This document shows positions 2,714 to 55,984 of a stretch of DNA of 64,000 nucleotides, piece after piece. Origin of the DNA: a virus; the IMG/VR virus record IMGVR_UViG_3300014325_000011, positions 32,001 through 96,000 of that record. One strand, written 5' to 3'. The notes under the pieces are model-generated. The model saw only the letters and a list, made by a program, of their open reading frames with translations, made no database searches and was not told the origin of the DNA. Position 1 is the stretch's first letter, and the number at the start of each line of letters is the position of its first letter. Made by a program: the position numbers and the translations under genes.

Positions 2714-2992
2714 ATGGACACCGTGTTCGTGCTGACGTTCACCGACTGGACGAACTCCAAGAGGTGGGGTGACCGGCCGTTCGCGGCGGCCGTCTCACTG
2801 GACCTGGCGAAAGCCGATGCCGCAGATGTGGCCACGCACAGTCTGGGCGACATGGTCGTGGACGACTGGTCGGAGATCGTCGATGGCGACTGGGAGACGC
2901 CGGTGTGGGTCGCCCCGGTCGTCGAGCCGTTCGTGATGCGACGGCAGGTTGGCGTGTTCGAGATCCGCGCCTTCAAGGTTCGGGAGGGCTGA
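2714..2992 (+). CDS. Hypothetical protein, probable paralog of 3364-3639
   Basis: GGAG RBS; MDTVFVL...DGDW...VGVFEI. Confidence 0.65.
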   Translation: MDTVFVLTFTDWTNSKRWGDRPFAAAVSLDLAKADAADVATHSLGDMVVDDWSEIVDGDWETPVWVAPVVEPFVMRRQVGVFEIRAFKVREG

Positions 2993-2995
2993 ACG

Positions 2996-3364
2996 GTGGC
3001 CGACTTGAACTGGGTCCAGGTGGGCGCGAAGGTCGCCAGCATGGGCCACACCTCGCTGAGCATCACAACCGTTGAGAAGATCACCGCAACGCAGATCGTC
3101 CTGGCGAACGGAAGCCGTTACTCGCGCAACACGGGCCGCAAGGTAGGCGCCACCGCCTACGACACGCACGAGCTGCTTCCGGTCGACCACCCGCGGATCC
3201 GCGATCGTCGAATCCGCGCCCAGATCCGCCAGCTCGGACACAAGGTCGACGAGCTGTGTCTCGGCATTAAAAGCAGCGACGAGGCCGCGTCGGTGCTGGC
3301 CGAGGTTGAGAAGGCGGTTGCGGCGACCCGTAAGCGAATCACTGAACTTGGAGGGGAGAGCTGA
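2996..3364 (+). CDS. Hypothetical phage protein (beta-rich N-terminus, coiled-coil C-terminus)
   Basis: GGAGGGCTGA-acg-GTG junction; VEKITATQIVLANGSRY. Confidence 0.65.
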   Translation: MADLNWVQVGAKVASMGHTSLSITTVEKITATQIVLANGSRYSRNTGRKVGATAYDTHELLPVDHPRIRDRRIRAQIRQLGHKVDELCLGIKSSDEAASVLAEVEKAVAATRKRITELGGES

Positions 3365-3639
3365 TGGACCCGCTGTTCGTGCTGTCCCATGTGGCCTACA
3401 CCGGGTACACGGTCGGATCGGTCTACCCGTTTCGCTCGCTCGCCGGCGCGCAGAAAGCGGCTGACAACTGGGCTGAGGACGTGTCTGGCACGCCGACAGG
3501 TGAGTTCGACGCCTGGCGCGGCTGGGAGCACATCGACGGCGACGACTGGGACCGCACGATGTGGCGCCGCCCGCTGTTCTACAAGGGTGCCGAAGTGGGC
3601 GCGCTGGAGATCGTCCAGTTCGACGAGATCGGCGACTAG
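3364..3639 (+). CDS. Hypothetical protein, probable paralog of 2714-2992
   Basis: TGATG coupling; MDPLFVL...DGDDW...VGALEI. Confidence 0.65.
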   Translation: MDPLFVLSHVAYTGYTVGSVYPFRSLAGAQKAADNWAEDVSGTPTGEFDAWRGWEHIDGDDWDRTMWRRPLFYKGAEVGALEIVQFDEIGD

Positions 3640-3641
3640 CC

Positions 3642-3929
3642 ATGCAGCGCGGCGGCCGTACCGGCGGCGTGTCCGACTGGTCGGCCGGCCGGATACACGG
3701 ACGGTCGGCCAGCCGCGCCGCATGGAGACAACAGGCAGTCGACGACCAGATGGGGGAGGGCATGTTCTTCGCCGGTGACGAGTATGCGGGCGACGAGGTC
3801 ACCTCGGGGCCGTACAGCGGTCTGGATGACCCGGACGCCGACGACTACCAGTACGACGATCTTGACGCCGATGTGGCCGACGGCTGGGACTACGACCGCG
3901 AGTACGACGACAACGAGGGGGACGACTGA
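3642..3929 (+). CDS. Hypothetical protein with highly acidic C-terminus
   Basis: Asp/Tyr-rich tail; TGATG coupling to the next gene; start uncertain. Confidence 0.55.
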   Translation: MQRGGRTGGVSDWSAGRIHGRSASRAAWRQQAVDDQMGEGMFFAGDEYAGDEVTSGPYSGLDDPDADDYQYDDLDADVADGWDYDREYDDNEGDD

Positions 3930-31340: not shown

Positions 31341-32891
31341 TCAGATCGCCTGCCAAGAGGTCCCATCCCAGACGAACGTGATGCCGGTCGTCGCAGAGGC
31401 CGTTGTCGAAAACGACTTTCCGTTCAGCTTGAACACCGCGTTCAGGGTCACCGTCCGGCCGCCAGTGCCGTCCTGCGTGAGCAGCAACGTGAGTTTCTGG
31501 CCCACCACCAGGTAGATCCCGGTGCCCGTGTTCGTACCCGTCAGCGCCGGGGCGCCGACCGTCGTGTTCCCGGTCAGCGTCATCGCGTACGTTTCGGACA
31601 GGAACGGGTCAGGTGTCCAGCTCGACGAGTAGGATAGGGCGTTGAACCCGCCGCCCTGCACACCCATCTGCACCTTGTTCGACCCGATCACACTTGACGC
31701 CTGAAGGGGCGGCATGTTGGTGCTGTTGTCGTTCAACTTGCCGTAGAAGATCAGCTCGACGCGGTTCCCTGTGGCACTTGACGTGATATTCAGCCCGGAG
31801 GCCTGATGGTTCAGGTTCGCCGCCCGATCCCAGGTCAGGCCGGTGACCGTACAGTTGCTGCTACCGCCCAGATCCACCCCGGCGAAGGAGCCGACCGGCG
31901 TGCCCGTGGACGTGCCGTCCGAGGTGCCATTGTGGCTGTTGCTGTCCGCCTCGATGCCGACCAGCGTCTGTCGGCCGCCGCGCACATAGAAGCCCGCGCG
32001 CGCGTTGTCCTGCGCGCAACAGCCGGTGGATTCGCCGCCGTTAAAGTTCCCGGCCGCCGAGCTGCCGCCAATGTTGTAGTAGAGGAATCCGTTGCCGAAC
32101 CCGTTGGCCAGGCTGTAGGTCAGACCGCCGGTGATGTTGCCTCCGTCCCACGAGTTCGCAGGAGCGGAAACGCTGACCGCCGTGCTCGTCCCGAAACGGT
32201 TGGTCATCAACGAGTAGCCCGAATACCAGGCCTTGCAGTTGGACAGCATGTTGTTGCCCTGGACCAGGAACCCGTCCAGCCCGTTGCCGCCCGAATCGCA
32301 GTTGGTGTACATGGAGTCGATCGACAGGTTGAAGCCGAAGCCGTTGCAGGTCCACACCTGGATGTTGGCGCCCTGGACGACACCGCGGCCCGTCTGCACG
32401 AAGCCGTCGCCAGTGAAGTTCTGAATCAGAACATTGGAGACCTGGTGGCGTGCGTCCGTGTACTCGTAGGAACCCGACGGGGTCGAGTTCTGAAACACTA
32501 TTCCGCAGTTCCAGTTGCTGCCGGAAACGGAACCCTTGTTGCCCTCCAAGCGCATCTTGTGAACACCACAGGCCTGCGCATCGTTGACGCCCGAGTAGTT
32601 CTGGACGTTCATGATCAGGTTTTCGAGAGTGGTCGCCGACGCCCGCAACGTCAACTGGGTGGCGAGCCCAACACCCTCCAGAGTGACCCGTTCCGGCAGG
32701 TTGATCTGGCCGGTGATGTAGTTCCCCGCCGGGAAAAACACGGTCCCCGACTGGGCGTAGATCGACACCGGAGCGACCGACGCAACCGCAGTGGCAATCG
32801 CATTCGTATCGTCGGTGCTGCCATCACCCTTGGCGCCGAAGTCCTTGACGTTTACGTAGATCCCACGCGGAGGGTAGAAAACATCGCTCAC
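31341..32891 (-). CDS. Pectate-lyase-3-like beta-helix spike protein
   Basis: VNVKDFGAKGDGSTDDTNAI...TVFFPAGNY; C-terminal LTQDGTGGRTVT module. Confidence 0.8.
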   Translation of the reverse strand: MSDVFYPPRGIYVNVKDFGAKGDGSTDDTNAIATAVASVAPVSIYAQSGTVFFPAGNYITGQINLPERVTLEGVGLATQLTLRASATTLENLIMNVQNYSGVNDAQACGVHKMRLEGNKGSVSGSNWNCGIVFQNSTPSGSYEYTDARHQVSNVLIQNFTGDGFVQTGRGVVQGANIQVWTCNGFGFNLSIDSMYTNCDSGGNGLDGFLVQGNNMLSNCKAWYSGYSLMTNRFGTSTAVSVSAPANSWDGGNITGGLTYSLANGFGNGFLYYNIGGSSAAGNFNGGESTGCCAQDNARAGFYVRGGRQTLVGIEADSNSHNGTSDGTSTGTPVGSFAGVDLGGSSNCTVTGLTWDRAANLNHQASGLNITSSATGNRVELIFYGKLNDNSTNMPPLQASSVIGSNKVQMGVQGGGFNALSYSSSWTPDPFLSETYAMTLTGNTTVGAPALTGTNTGTGIYLVVGQKLTLLLTQDGTGGRTVTLNAVFKLNGKSFSTTASATTGITFVWDGTSWQAI

Positions 32892-46470: not shown

Positions 46471-46525
46471 AGGTCACCCACCAAGGTCACATGATCGAGC
46501 CTGTTCCCGCAGGTAGAATGGTGAC

Positions 46526-47209
46526 GTGGCCGACGATCGGCGCAAGCGGCGCAACCTCGAACGCGCATTGCGAACGACCAGTGGCAGATGCTGGAGCTGC
46601 GGCGCCCGCCTATCCATCAACGGCCTCACGTCCGGCACGGTTGCCGCTGTCGCCGAACTCATCACACCACCGAGCGCAGGTGGCACCTACCAAGCCCTCA
46701 ACATCCGGCCAAGTTGTGCGCCATGCAACCAAGCGCGCGCCACCCGCGTTGAAGCCGGGACCGCGACCGTCCACATGCCCACGTCGAACTCAAACCGAAT
46801 TCTGGCGTGGATCTTGGAGCGCGACGGGCCGGCCTGCTGCCACTGTGGAGTTCCGCTGTCGATCGAGGGTACTGCGCCGGGAACCGCCGCCGCCACCTTC
46901 GAACATGTACGCCCCGCCAGCAGAAAAGGTGCGCGCGTACTTCCCAATGGTCGTGCGGCCTGTCAGCCATGCAATAGCGCTCGCGGGTCGACAATCGGGA
47001 TTCTCGACGGGGACCACAGGCATGTGTACACGTCCCACGAGGATGGCGCTGAATGTGTGTTCTGCGGTAGGCCGATGTCCAGCAGGTCGCAGTATCGACA
47101 TCGACAGGAGGGTTGCCGATGCGAGGATCGCGCCCGGATGCTCGTGGAGGACCCGGAGGCCCTTTTGGCGCTGGCTTTCCCGCCGGACCGCTACCCCCTT
47201 CCGCGTTGA
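46526..47209 (+). CDS. Tandem HNH-domain endonuclease, leaderless
   Basis: Two CxxC...CxxCN units; the second has TFEHVRP; TAGAAT at 46514-46519. Confidence 0.75.
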   Translation: MADDRRKRRNLERALRTTSGRCWSCGARLSINGLTSGTVAAVAELITPPSAGGTYQALNIRPSCAPCNQARATRVEAGTATVHMPTSNSNRILAWILERDGPACCHCGVPLSIEGTAPGTAAATFEHVRPASRKGARVLPNGRAACQPCNSARGSTIGILDGDHRHVYTSHEDGAECVFCGRPMSSRSQYRHRQEGCRCEDRARMLVEDPEALLALAFPPDRYPLPR

Positions 47210-50824: not shown

Positions 50825-51106
50825 TCAGTTCCGGGCCTGCTCGGCTATCTCACGCCAGCGTCGGGCGTTCTCGGCAAGGGCGGCTGTCAGTGCATCCCGC
50901 AGCCGGGCGGCGTCCTGTTCGGACAGCTCGACGTACACCTCTGGGTCGGCGGCGGTATCCACGGTGGCGATCCGCACCGCATAGCCGGACGGTTCCGCGG
51001 CTGGGTGCATCCCGGTGCGGGCCACGTCGAGTTCGCGGCCGTCACAGTCGCGGATCGGCTCTGGCAGGTCGAGGGAACTCCAGATGCTCACAGCGGCCTC
51101 CGCCAA
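50825..51106 (-). CDS. Small hypothetical protein
   Basis: VELSEQDAARLRDAL; start probably GTG 51091. Confidence 0.5.
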   Translation of the reverse strand: MAEAAVSIWSSLDLPEPIRDCDGRELDVARTGMHPAAEPSGYAVRIATVDTAADPEVYVELSEQDAARLRDALTAALAENARRWREIAEQARN

Positions 51107-53561
51107 CCCTCCTGTGAGGTCTGGCCGGGGAACAGGTCGTCGATGCCCAACGGGGCTGGTGTCTCGTCGGGCGGAAGCTGGGGCTGTGACCCGGCGGCGT
51201 CCTCTTTGGCGAAGACGTGGTTCATGTAGAACTGCATCCCACCGATGTCGGCAAGATCAGTTATCGCCCAGACGCAGTTGTGGACCAGCACACCGTTCGC
51301 CACGAACTCGTGGACGTCGGCGACCTGTAGGTCATACACGTCCCGCAGCTCGGGCTCGGCGTAGAGCTGCACCACACGTCCGGCCGCAGGTCTCGGGCTT
51401 GACCCGGTACTTGTTCTGCCAGAACTCTGTTCCGCAGAGAGGACACGGCACGCGGACCTTGTAGGTGTTGGCGTCTCGGTGATCTTTTTCGATGCACTGT
51501 TTCGAGCAGTGCTTGGCTCCCCGGGGGTTGCGGCTGAGGAACTTCGTGCCGCAAGTGACACAGGTGTACTCGACGTGCTCACGGTCTTCCCAAGTCCGGG
51601 CGCCGTGTTCCCGGTGCCACGCTCGCCCCTCGTCGCTTCGGTGCCACTCGGAAGCCAAATGCCGGACATCGGCGAGATGAGCCTGTTGTCTTGGCCCTCG
51701 GTTCCGCTCCAAGACCTCGTCGGCGTGTTCGGCGAAGTGCTCCGGCGGACTGAGCGCGACAAGGTTCGAGGGGTCGTTGTTGAACGGGTCGTCGTCCTTG
51801 TGGTGGACGTGGTAGCCGTCGGGAATTGGACCGTGATGGCGCTTGTAGATCTCACGGTGGTACTGCTCAAGGCCGGAGCCACGAGGAGGCGAGTAGTAGA
51901 CCCGGTTGGCGCGCTGCCGGCCTTTCGGGTTCCGGGTATAACGCACGCCGTCGAGGTAGACGGAGATAGGCGATTCCATACCACGATTGTATCTGCCCAA
52001 ACCAGAGAATCGAGACGAGCCCATCCGCGATTCTCGGTCCAGACAAGGTGATCGGGAGTACCCGTAATCCGTCGCCCGTCAGCCGTAACTGCGGTCATCA
52101 CCCGGGCTTCGCGGCGCGTACAGCGCGTCGCTTCGACCAGACGCCATCCCGCGCGGGTCCACACCAGTTCGCCCGGCTGGACATCTTCAATCGGGACGTC
52201 ACCCCGACGCGCGAGAACCGTGGTACCCGCGATCAGGCAGGCGTCGAGCCTGTTCGGCGACCAGTCCGCGTCCGGCGTCCACGAGATCATCTCGTCCTCA
52301 AGGTCAGGTAGCCCGCCGACATGGTGCGCCCGGCCCTGCTCGTAGATCGCCGAGATCGGTTCGGCGCGGATCTTCTTACCGCGGCTGGCCGTGACCTTCG
52401 TGTAAGCCACGTTGTGATCCACATGGCGGATCGTCGACTCGACCATGTCCGCCCCGAAGTTGACCTCGGCGACGATCCTGTCCGCCTTGTACCGGTGGTA
52501 GGCGTCGACCGCGGCCCGAGCCCAACCATCCGGGCTCGCCTTCAACGTCAGGTCTTCCAACACCCAGAAGTGCTCCTGCGCGTCGACACCGGCTACGACG
52601 ATGCCCGTGTGGTCCGACTCGTCGTTGGCCGTACCTGCCGGGTCGATCGCGACCACGATCCGGACCAGAGTGGGTAGGTCTGTGAGCGCACGACGGTGCT
52701 CGTCGATGTTGCCCCGGGTCCACAGGGCGCCCGGGTTGTCGTCCAGGTATTCGCCGTACAGCTCCTGGCGGCCAAGACGGGTGCCCTCGTAGCGCTTGCG
52801 CAGTTCCGACAGGGCGGCAGCGGACAGGTTCGCCGCGTTGTCGAATGTCGAGCCGCGGGTGACGACTACCGAGCCGTCATCGCGGCCCATCCAGTCCTTG
52901 AGCAGGATCGATGGCTTCGGTGTGGTCGTGACGATGACCTGCGGGCGGCCGATGCGTAGCGCCGGGGCTAGGCCCTCAGTCCAGGACGCGCGGGCGTAAC
53001 GCCACTTGGCAATTTCATCGAACCAACCGCCGGACAGGTTCAGGCCACGGCCTACGTCGGCGTCATCCGCACCCAGCATGTGGATGATCTGGCCTGTGCT
53101 CAGCCTGATCTGCCAGAGCGACCGGTTATACACGTAGTCGACGTGGCGGTTGTTGAGCACGGTGCGAACACCGGCCGGACCTTCGACGCAGACCAGCCGA
53201 GCGTCGGAGAACGTTTCGGCGACGATCGCCCATTCGGTGGGAGAGCCGTCGGGAGCGGTTGGGGTGTCGAGGACGCGCTGAACCAGCGTCTCGGCACCCG
53301 TTCGACTTTTCCCCAACCACGTCCCGCCAGGATCAGCCAGACGAGCCAGTCGCCGTCAGGTGCCCGCTGGGCGGTCCGTGCATGCTTCCACGTAAACGTG
53401 CCGTGGGGTTCGCCGTCACAGTCGTCGAGGCCGCACGCCCACGGCTTGTCTGCCGTAACGGTGACGGCTTCGAGTTGCTGGCGCAGTTCGAGCTCCCGCC
53501 GAAGGAGGGCGAGGCGTCGTTCAGCTAGGGTCGCCGGTTTCGGCAAGGTCGCGGTGGACAA
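51088..53561 (-). CDS. terL: Terminase large subunit, intein-containing, with a -1 frame break in Walker A at 53307-53313
   Basis: WLILAGRGWGK|SRTGAE across two frames; WFDEIA, VTTTPKP, GRQELYG, VAIDPA, IVAEVNFG, SPNRLDA...CVWA. Confidence 0.9.
51332..51979 (-). CDS. HNH homing endonuclease with C-terminal zinc fingers, overprinted in the -1 frame inside the intein
   Basis: HREIY..HHGPIPDGYHVHHKDDDPFNNDPSNLVAL...EH; CxxC/CxxxC pairs; TACAAT lies 6 nt before the ATG. Confidence 0.9.
   Translation of the reverse strand: MESPISVYLDGVRYTRNPKGRQRANRVYYSPPRGSGLEQYHREIYKRHHGPIPDGYHVHHKDDDPFNNDPSNLVALSPPEHFAEHADEVLERNRGPRQQAHLADVRHLASEWHRSDEGRAWHREHGARTWEDREHVEYTCVTCGTKFLSRNPRGAKHCSKQCIEKDHRDANTYKVRVPCPLCGTEFWQNKYRVKPETCGRTCGAALRRARAAGRV
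51986..51991 (-). promoter_or_regulatory. Intein-internal -10 element (TACAAT) for leaderless HNH expression
   Basis: TACAAT-cgtggt-ATG; same spacing as other leaderless genes in this window. Confidence 0.6.
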
Positions 53562-54015
53562 GGCGGCGCTCCAACTCGGCGATCTCCGCTTCGATCTGGC
53601 CGACGGTTCGGACCTCAACCTTGGTCGGGGCGTCAAGGCCGAGGAGCTTCGCCCGACGGTCTTGGATCTTCAACAGCCGGTCGATGGCGGCGAGGATGGG
53701 TGCGTCGTCTTCCAACGGTTTGCCGTCGTGCCAGATGACGCCGTCTTTCTGGACGGTGTAGTGCTTGGCTTCGAGTACCTGCATGCCGGCCTGGTAAAGC
53801 CGGTCGAGGCGTTCGAGTTCGAGGGCGCGTAGTTCGTCGGCGGTTTCGCGGACGTCGGCGGCGATGATCCGCTGGACGGCGCGGTAGGCGACGCCGCGGT
53901 TCGGGTAGCGGAGTTCGGTGGCGATCTGCTCGTAGGTCTTGCCTGCGATCCGCATGCGGGCGGCGTCGGCGTCCCGGGCGGCGGTGGCAGGGTTGTTGCG
54001 GGCGCGGGGCGGCAT
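53521..54015 (-). CDS. terS: Terminase small subunit
   Basis: HTH (GKTYEQIATEL), LERLDRL, AIDRLLKIQDRRAKLLGLDAP; directly upstream of terL. Confidence 0.8.
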   Translation of the reverse strand: MPPRARNNPATAARDADAARMRIAGKTYEQIATELRYPNRGVAYRAVQRIIAADVRETADELRALELERLDRLYQAGMQVLEAKHYTVQKDGVIWHDGKPLEDDAPILAAIDRLLKIQDRRAKLLGLDAPTKVEVRTVGQIEAEIAELERRLVHRDLAETGDPS

Positions 54016-55548: not shown

Positions 55549-55734
55549 CTAGTAGCACTGCCAACGGGCGCCGCAGTCGCAGCGCATCCCAGACCAGCGG
55601 ACCTTCAGCCGGCGGGAACAGCCCTTGGCGTGCTTTCGGTGCCCATTGGGGAGCCGTTCGCCAACCCGGTCCACCACGGACACCGTATTGGGGTCACGCT
55701 CATCGACGATGACCTGATACCGAGCTTCTTCCAC
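55549..55734 (-). CDS. Small Cys/His protein
   Basis: HAKGC...CDCG; TAGAAT lies 6 nt upstream of the GTG. Confidence 0.45.
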   Translation of the reverse strand: MEEARYQVIVDERDPNTVSVVDRVGERLPNGHRKHAKGCSRRLKVRWSGMRCDCGARWQCY

Positions 55735-55984
55735 CTGCCCATTCTACCGCGTTTCCGCTGGTAGGGTGGTGTGTAGGTGCCGCCCATCCGACCGGGTGAT
55801 CGCGACGAACAAACCCATCGGGCGGCGCCCCTCAAGCGGAACCGCGATGGTTCCTTGGGGCGGGAGGCGAGGGAACCACCGGGCGTCGCGCCGTAGCCGC
55901 GACACCCCCGTAAGGGGCTGACATCTCGGCCCGGCCTCCCGCCCAACCTACCCGGTGCGCGGTGAAAGCCCATTCACTGCGATC

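Follow-up and report, generated by a model that had tools for sequence, protein, structure and literature searches.

Introduction

Inteins whose homing endonuclease is read in a different frame from the splicing domains have been described in both phage and cellular genes. Here, we analyze such an element in terL, the gene for the large terminase subunit (TerL), in a 64,000-nucleotide (nt) stretch of viral DNA (positions 32,001 to 96,000 of IMG/VR record IMGVR_UViG_3300014325_000011; hereafter, the window). The mobile element in this gene very probably consists of two overlapping genes on the same strand, an intein and an overprinted homing endonuclease, the latter belonging to the HNH_3 family of Pfam. 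The kind of architecture has already been described, and the family of HNH_3 TerL inteins to which the element belongs is not unprecedented in that respect; judging from its sequences, it differs from the described kinds in nuclease family, insertion site and distribution. We found no paper describing this family in a literature search that had subscription journals outside its reach, and the literature on an intein in phage TJE1 and on terL inteins with an overlapping open reading frame (ORF) contained nothing specific to it.

Gosselin, Arsenault and Gogarten reported inteins of actinophages in which a nuclease resembling Endonuclease VII lies "in frame 3 relative to the intein," along with antisense LAGLIDADG and Vsr-like cases; they predicted that more such inteins exist than have been recorded, given that annotation pipelines miss overlapping ORFs (Gosselin et al., 2025; bioRxiv 10.1101/2025.01.02.630785). 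Like the TerL inteins of that study (Sedona gp2), the HNH_3 elements carry a same-strand endonuclease ORF in "frame 3" of a contiguous TerL intein linker. In both, the intein frame is open but unstructured, and the proposed origin is the invasion of an intein by a free-standing endonuclease gene. In contrast, the ORF in gp2 of Gordonia phage Sedona has the CxxC...DHDH...CNxxLG motifs of Endonuclease_7, whereas the HNH_3 proteins end in zinc ribbons. The Sedona intein is 265 amino acids (aa) long vs. ~322 aa in the HNH_3 family, and it lies before TRWHEDDL in the ATPase domain, whereas the HNH_3 family occupies a motif of the nuclease domain, between D-H/A and x-D-A-L-R-Y. The junction in the window (...NRLDA, then CVWAITDL) likewise falls in the nuclease domain and not before TRWHEDDL. 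The published cases are restricted to actinophages; the HNH_3 family spans three Pfam types of TerL and a GC content of 0.28-0.69, and a tblastn search of GenBank phages with the HNH protein matched no Gordonia, Mycobacterium, Arthrobacter or Microbacterium phage. A Pfam search of the window HNH gave no Endonuclease_7 match even at E≤10, and this result, together with the different insertion site, rules out membership of the published EndoVII-type TerL intein family.

Three further systems bear comparison. In mycobacteriophage ShiLan, a hidden third-frame HNH lies in an insertion in a DNA methylase gene, with no intein (Arsenault et al., 2025; PMC11855218). There, as in the window, the HNH has flanking zinc fingers, the insertion is stop-free in the host frame and the nuclease stop falls at the very end of the insertion; leaderless initiation has also been discussed for ShiLan. 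The methylase insertion has no detectable splicing domains, unlike the window, where the read-through product would be removed by an intact class-1 terL intein. A cyanobacterial dnaX intein contains an out-of-frame LAGLIDADG endonuclease (Phillips et al., bioRxiv 10.64898/2026.09.14.751524; Gorbalenya, 1998, as cited therein). Splicing and homing are similarly assigned to separate overlapping frames with purifying selection on the endonuclease frame, and secondary invasion of a mini-intein has been proposed there too; unlike the HNH_3 family, the dnaX intein has a LAGLIDADG nuclease, a cellular host gene and a range of one phylum. Finally, Dassa et al. described fractured genes in which split inteins surround a free-standing endonuclease gene (Dassa et al., 2009; PMC2677866). 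The window shares with these a nuclease gene of free-standing type between intein halves, its 3′ end overlapping the C-terminal intein part. Unlike the fractured genes, it has an open host frame, and its nuclease is an HNH rather than a GIY-YIG or Vsr-like enzyme. Because the host frame stays open, the window intein is predicted to be contiguous and cis-splicing. The canonical HNH intein (1997, as cited in later work) also has its HNH between the splicing blocks, but in the intein frame, a position that the HNH occupies in 0 of the 77 loci analyzed here.

Results

Anatomy of the terL Intein and the Overprinted HNH Gene

The locus lies on the minus strand of the window and comprises the following features, several of which overlap.

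51088..53316, minus: TerL main ORF, 742 aa as listed, TTG start; Terminase_6N/6C and Intein_splicing (Pfam)
52240..53316, minus: N-extein, with the ATPase domain and most of the RNase H-like nuclease domain, C-terminal end ...SPNRLDA
51277..52239, minus: predicted class-1 intein, 963 nt, 321 aa; Cys1 at 52239-52237, terminal His-Asn at 51282-51277
51980..52239, minus: N-terminal splicing region of the intein, ending ...WADTIVVW
52239-52213 and 52062-52036, minus: block A (CLIAGTTVL) and block B (GTPDHLVWT), respectively
51986..51991, minus: TACAAT, a -10-like hexamer in the intein codons GAT ACA ATC (Asp-Thr-Ile)
51332..51979, minus: predicted HNH_3 homing-endonuclease gene, 215 aa plus TGA, in the +2/-1 frame; ATG at 51979-51977, TGA at 51334-51332
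51340..51975, minus: intein-frame read-through of the overlap, an unconserved low-complexity linker without stops
51277..51339, minus: C-terminal splicing blocks F/G (VYDLQVADVHEFVANGVLVHN)
51091..51276, minus: C-extein from the +1 Cys (CVWAITDL...), which is at 51276-51274

Pfam matches of the TerL ORF were Terminase_6N, Terminase_6C, Intein_splicing (41.6 bits, cut-off 35.8) and Hint_2 (21.9 bits, under its cut-off of 28.4). The junction residues of a class-1 intein are present, namely Cys at position 1 and Cys at +1 of the C-extein, as are the T-x-x-H of block B (GTPDHLVWT) and the C-terminal His-Asn (...VLVHN). A first-pass annotation of the window, made from its letters without database searches, had described blocks A/B and F/G as intact (Cys1...HN/Cys+1), and both the coordinates and the Pfam match agree with it. 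Since the blocks are intact and TerL is essential, the intein presumably splices.

The HNH ORF is offset from the TerL frame by +2 (= -1). Its ATG lies exactly 6 nt downstream of TACAAT and its TGA falls inside GTG TAT GAC, in the Tyr-Asp codons of block F (VYD), as first noted. The intein frame has no stop across the whole overlap, again as proposed, and terL is accordingly not fractured. Between blocks B and F, 74% of the intein-frame residues are S/T/R/P/A/G compared with 44% in the N-extein, which substantiates the claim that the centre is of low complexity. The ORF listing extends the HNH to an upstream ATG at 52024 (230 aa); alignment with homologs supports the ATG at 51979 as the likelier start.

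The Nuclease Is an HNH_3 Protein with Two Zinc Ribbons

The 215-aa product matched Pfam HNH_3 at E=1e-13 (50.8 bits, cut-off 24.8) and PHROG 15471, "HNH endonuclease," at E=7e-29; the reading of 51979 to 51332 as a complete HNH endonuclease in the -1 frame therefore holds. It is laid out as an N-terminal beta-hairpin, an HVHHKD..NN..EH core, a WH-x-S-x-x-G-x-x-WH helix and two zinc ribbons. Residues H59, H60, N68, N72, H81 and H85 were invariant in 30 sequences, and the eight Cys of the ribbons, in four pairs, were invariant in the alignment of homologs. The window protein is full length and retains every invariant catalytic and zinc-binding residue.

An alignment-based AlphaFold model of the protein (pLDDT 94) superseded a poor single-sequence model (pLDDT 48). 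Its best structural match in the PDB was I-HmuI (1u3e; Z 7.5, rmsd 3.0 Å over 77 residues by VIA-align), followed by a match at Z 4.6; T4 endonuclease VII reached only Z 2.1, which taken alone is not a decisive value. A Z-score of 7.5 is middling and supports, rather than proves, membership of the HNH_3/I-HmuI-like group. Foldseek with the model returned nothing from the PDB under E=0.4, and a profile search of PDB sequences with the HNH family gave no match. I-HmuI (PDB 1U3E), which is encoded by a group I intron of a Bacillus phage, has the same N-terminal hairpin, HNH core and Pfam assignment (HNH_3). The window nuclease differs from it in being nested in an intein and in its C-terminal modules, a WH helix pair and the two zinc ribbons.

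A phmmer search of 1.84 billion representative proteins gave 4035 homologs, and the best 150 of these were all 150-307 aa long. In a search limited to longer proteins (378-2000 aa), among which fusions of the HNH would fall, nothing matched at E≤1e-10; this evidence is weak but agrees with a stand-alone protein. Sequence comparison thus identifies the predicted nuclease as a stand-alone protein that is neither an intein domain nor a frameshift product.

The Arrangement Is Shared by Phages of Three Bacterial Phyla

Besides the window, 76 loci carry a nested HNH in the same relative frame (GC 0.28-0.69). Matches by tblastn to GenBank phages fell in the terL of four phages, Tetrasphaera phage TJE1, Acinetobacter phage Highwayman, Rhodobacteraceae phage MD07 and Clostridioides difficile phage phiCDHM19 (31% GC), and in all four the HNH is offset by +2 from the annotated terL coding sequence with both frames open. 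Three further IMG/VR contigs have the same nesting. IMG/VR was then searched with a profile built from 30 HNH homologs, and of at least 372 viral loci the best 80 were retrieved; 69 of these 80 are nested, within host ORFs of 385-1184 aa and all in the same relative frame. The HNH was in frame with its host, or nested in the other frame, in 0 of the 80, and the third frame contains 2-41 stops. Blocks F/G follow or overlap the HNH stop (TGA in 43 loci, TAA in 23, TAG in 2) in 68 of the 69, the exception being a locus that ends at the contig edge (L094 in our numbering). All 10 host ORFs sampled were TerL of the Terminase_6, Terminase_3 or GpA_ATPase type, with intein splicing domains (Intein_splicing/Hint_2) on either side of the HNH. 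In 70 aligned loci, the junctions conform to ..D-H/A before C-x-x-A-G-T at the upstream end and to ...H-N before C-D-A-L-R-Y or C-V-W at the downstream end; the inteins have a median length of 322 aa. Isolated phages with a nested HNH infect Actinobacteria, Proteobacteria and Firmicutes.

A search for homologous TerL inteins in which both frames stay open, as the first-pass annotation had suggested, thus found both open in 76 further loci, and the view of the HNH as a separate -1-frame gene rather than an in-frame domain gained from the constant offset and from the lack of any in-frame homolog among the proteins searched. Two other searches were negative: a megablast of terL against 50,697 phage records gave no match, and a single-protein search of genome contigs with the window protein found no relative.

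In two contigs (L035:239-3790 and L075:926-3820), terL contains two inteins. The upstream intein has an ordinary in-frame LAGLIDADG domain and the downstream one has the out-of-frame HNH.

Both Frames Are Kept Open, and Selection Acts on the HNH Frame

The window has a GC content of 63-66%, at which the +1-shifted frame of a coding sequence is often open. For the window alone, the probability of zero stops in the intein frame was 0.13 by synonymous permutation, and back-translation based on the codon preferences of the phage portal gene and the TerL N-extein put it at 0.14. The open intein frame is unremarkable in the window itself (P≈0.14), and to that extent the locus taken singly argues against overprinting. 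The same applies to an apparent avoidance of CTG and GTG before codons that start with A: the four cases pointed out (L76 CTC, V141 GTC, L148 CTC and V193 GTC, each followed by A) are genuine, but they merely restate that the frame is open and are not significant in the window by themselves.

It is the family comparison, and only that, which makes the open frame significant. In 67 nested IMG/VR loci, 0 host-frame stops were observed vs. ~156 expected under synonymous permutation. Loci below 50% GC had a median P(0 host-frame stops) of 0.009, and the low-GC members had P(0) of 0.0004-0.01 each. Free-standing HNH homologs, which serve as a natural control, have 1-12 stops in the frame that nested copies keep open. 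Chance is therefore tenable as an explanation for the window alone, but is ruled out for the family by 0 vs. 156 stops.

The HNH nearest to that of the window is only 54% identical. Because no relative was close enough for pairwise dN/dS, we used nucleotide differences by codon position in an HNH-guided codon alignment. These were 0.51/0.46/0.66 at HNH codon positions 1/2/3 among nested copies and 0.44/0.42/0.66 among free-standing copies. Amino-acid identity was 36% in the HNH frame vs. 20% for the same columns in the TerL frame, and tblastn with the intein-frame protein found relatives only through its first ~117 residues, that is, the N-terminal splicing region. Together, the substitution pattern and the identities by frame indicate protein-level constraint in the nuclease frame, and the prediction that conservation would track the -1 frame is borne out, since changes concentrate at position 3 of the HNH codons. 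In the overlap, the intein frame appears only to be kept free of stops.

Start Signals and Expression of the HNH Gene

The start codon of nested copies, ATG or GTG, precedes the conserved N-terminal hairpin by 4-18 codons. A few codons ahead of it, the HNH frame is interrupted by stops in most of the 77 loci (6 of the first 8 inspected). Several loci have Shine-Dalgarno sites, such as those of the C. difficile phage (AAGGAG) and of MD07 (GGAGG). In 32 of the 77 loci, TANNNT stands exactly 6 nt before the start, vs. a background of 0.87% at ATG/GTG triplets of the same ORFs; the spacing is sharply defined, with 32 of 40 hexamer occurrences at 6 nt vs. 1-3 at any other distance. The hexamers include TATAAT (7), TAGAAT (4), TAGACT (4) and TACAAT (3), and TG is found at -15/-14 in 17 of the 32. 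They are written in intein codons for Asp-x-Ile/Leu. Where the GC content of the locus is 60% or more and the first base of the hexamer falls in an Asp codon, that codon is GAT in 17 of 17 cases, compared with 27% GAT among Asp codons of the same ORFs, and rare AGA or ATA codons often follow. This codon choice argues for selection at the nucleotide level and would fit a leaderless mRNA that starts at the ATG. The geometry in the window (TACAAT-N6-ATG) and in a relative, L005 (TAGAAT-N6-ATG), is of this putative leaderless type. What the sequences show directly is the dual-coding anatomy, the conservation of both open frames, selection on the HNH frame and the conservation of start signals.

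The first-pass annotation had gone further and given the nuclease its own internal promoter. The fixed-spacing TANNNT and the GAT preference lend comparative support to that proposal; in the window itself, a scan for a sigma-70 consensus found the hexamer with neither a -35 element nor a TG extension, and here the claim is weakened. Further points also weigh against our reading. Related loci share ancestry, and the motif counts are not independent events. The hexamer overlaps the conserved Gly-Asp-x-Ile/Leu motif, and its conservation is therefore partly at the protein level. Moreover, the window has no stop in the HNH frame over the 33 codons that precede the ATG, and entry from upstream is therefore not barred by stops there. 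On balance, we lean slightly toward transcription from an internal -10 that yields a leaderless mRNA.

The strongest competitor is that the HNH is overprinted but has no promoter of its own, with its translation starting internally on the late terL mRNA and the TACAAT being a by-product of the Gly-Asp-x-Ile codons. The many members with a Shine-Dalgarno site and no -10-like hexamer would be accommodated by it, as would the hexamer's overlap with an intein motif and the failure of the scan to find a full sigma-70 promoter in the window. Such initiation fits poorly with the window, which lacks a Shine-Dalgarno-like sequence before the HNH ATG, and it leaves the near-invariant 6-nt spacing and the invariant GAT followed by rare codons without an explanation at the nucleotide level. 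We therefore consider internal initiation unlikely, although well ahead of the other alternatives. If an internal -10 is indeed used, the timing of the HNH may be independent of late terL expression.

The TANAAT-N6-RTG pattern occurs three times in the window vs. 0.25 expected, each time at the first start codon of an ORF. The other two occurrences, at 46514-46528 (+) and 55732-55746 (-), end on the start codons of the ORFs 46526..47209 (+) and 55734..55549 (-), respectively. This hints that the phage may use leaderless starts of this geometry.

A Frame Break at Walker A and the Remaining Alternatives

The TerL N-terminus and Walker A are in a different frame from the rest of terL (window 53300-53640, minus). 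The TerL of a related locus, L019, matches one frame as far as AGRGWGK and the -1 frame onward from GKSRTGAE, with the join at TGG GGA AAA G (53307-53313). The join reflects either programmed -1 frameshifting on G_GGA_AAA or an assembly error of one base in the G4A4 run. The break counts against our interpretation insofar as it could point to a defective copy of terL or to indels in the assembly.

Decay is a common fate of homing endonuclease genes once they are fixed, and the HNH of this phage might be an inactive relic within a mini-intein that has a long junk linker and no longer homes. The frame break elsewhere in terL would suit such decay, and a nearest relative that is 54% identical is too distant for dN/dS to register recent loss of constraint. 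The window HNH is nonetheless full length, with all invariant catalytic and zinc residues, an intact start context and a confident model, and selection on the HNH frame is evident at the family level; we regard a relic as improbable.

Still less credible is programmed -1 frameshifting that would produce a TerL-N/intein-N/HNH fusion instead of a free protein. The nuclease does lie in the -1 frame, open in the window over the 33 codons noted above, and the same gene has a G_GGA_AAA heptamer at Walker A. A fusion is rejected on three counts: the stops just upstream of the start in most loci, the lack of any X_XXY_YYZ heptamer in the permissive stretch of the window or its relatives, and the conserved start codons with Shine-Dalgarno or -10 signals.

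That two compensating indels mask an ordinary in-frame HNH intein can for practical purposes be dismissed, even for a metagenome-derived contig with one apparent 1-nt frame break in the G4A4 run of terL, given that 76 independent loci, isolates included, share the frame offset and the start and stop positions, that no in-frame homolog turned up among the best 150 of 4035 matches or in the longer-protein search, and that two random indels would be unlikely to leave a stop-free intein frame in the low-GC relatives.

Free-Standing and Fractured Relatives

Members of this nuclease family are also found outside inteins, as free-standing genes next to terminase genes. In Acinetobacter phage BP10, such a gene lies upstream of terS; in phages of Exiguobacterium, Pseudomonas (PAE1/FBPa53) and Lactobacillus (CL2), a free HNH lies between terL and the next gene. 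Nine of the IMG/VR loci have a free HNH, which in 8 of the 9 directly follows an intein-less terL ending in the ...D-H-x-x-D-A-x-R-Y motif. Among those after an intein-less terL are L016, L024, L028, L043, L044, L047 and L065 (around 2900-3650), whereas the contig of L040 (HNH at 141-815) starts too near the HNH to show the upstream gene. In L040, L047 and L065, the HNH start is immediately preceded by a short D-A-x-R-Y-A-like stretch that resembles the terL target motif and may be left over from a C-extein or a homing site.

In two other loci, L074 (1385-3700) and L076 (1494-3760), intact intein halves surround the same HNH, yet the host frame is interrupted, by 12 stops within the overlap in L074 and by a change of frame between the two halves in L076. 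Both look like fractured terL genes with split inteins, and appear to be in exactly the state expected from the model in which endonuclease genes invade inteins (Dassa et al., 2009; PMC2677866).

Nested copies are interspersed with free ones in a tree of 91 HNH sequences, which requires a minimum of 9 changes of state, 4 of them forced by well-supported branches. The tree therefore indicates repeated movement of the nuclease gene into or out of inteins. The window HNH groups with one nested and two free copies. Two Acinetobacter phages, BP10 (L009) and Highwayman (L002), carry sister HNH genes: that of BP10 is free, with 12 stops in the +1 frame, and that of Highwayman is nested in the terL intein, with none. 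In free-standing copies, stops are far rarer in the +1 than in the +2 frame. The use of "frame 3" by the HNH_3 TerL family, Sedona, ShiLan and dnaX might thus reflect the host frame in which the nuclease imposes the fewest stops.

Discussion

The arrangement suggests how the two genes may work together. The element sits in the nuclease-domain motif of TerL. Its presence in three Pfam types of TerL, together with the mixing of nested and free-standing copies on the nuclease tree, is the one indirect indication of homing. Frame 0 would encode a class-1 intein whose splicing halves are joined by ~210 codons without conserved protein sequence. This linker would need only to lack stops, in that TerL would be translated through it and the intein would then splice itself out, taking the linker with it. 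The -1 (+2) frame would encode a complete I-HmuI-like homing endonuclease with HNH_3 and zinc-ribbon modules, translated by itself into a protein of 215 aa from its own start to its own stop, the latter arising within the Tyr-Asp/Asn codons of block F. During co-infection, the HNH would presumably nick or cut an intein-less terL at the ...DA/C-V-W-A... site, and repair would then insert a copy of the entire intein-plus-HNH unit. In this phage, the HNH would probably be expressed from a leaderless mRNA beginning at the ATG at 51979, transcribed by way of the -10 TACAAT in the Asp-Thr-Ile codons. Protein splicing and the activity and target of the HNH are here predicted from motifs and homology.

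A broader proposition follows from the same data: a large, multi-phylum terL intein family in which the HNH is always a separate -1-frame gene, ~40% of whose members have a (in some cases extended) -10 in the Gly-Asp-x-Ile/Leu codons that would give a leaderless mRNA and a timing of its own, and whose free, dual-coding and fractured members are living examples of every state on the proposed route between them. As a whole, we put this forward tentatively, as possible rather than probable.

Inteins are usually taught as one polypeptide that combines splicing and homing, whereas here the two functions would belong to two overlapping genes, and for one nuclease family this two-gene arrangement appears to be the rule across very different phages. 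Because gene callers annotate terL only, the nuclease gene is unlisted in many phage genomes, including those of Acinetobacter and Clostridioides isolates. The unconstrained and presumably spliceable linker of ~210 residues may be of interest to intein engineers. The family also offers a way to study how an overlapping frame is held open without protein-level constraint, and it raises the question of whether the timing of a selfish nuclease can be uncoupled from that of its late-gene host. With its free, nested and fractured states, the HNH_3 family would be a natural test bed for the entry of endonuclease genes into inteins and their departure from them, and the BP10 and Highwayman pair seems well suited to a study of the transition from free to nested.

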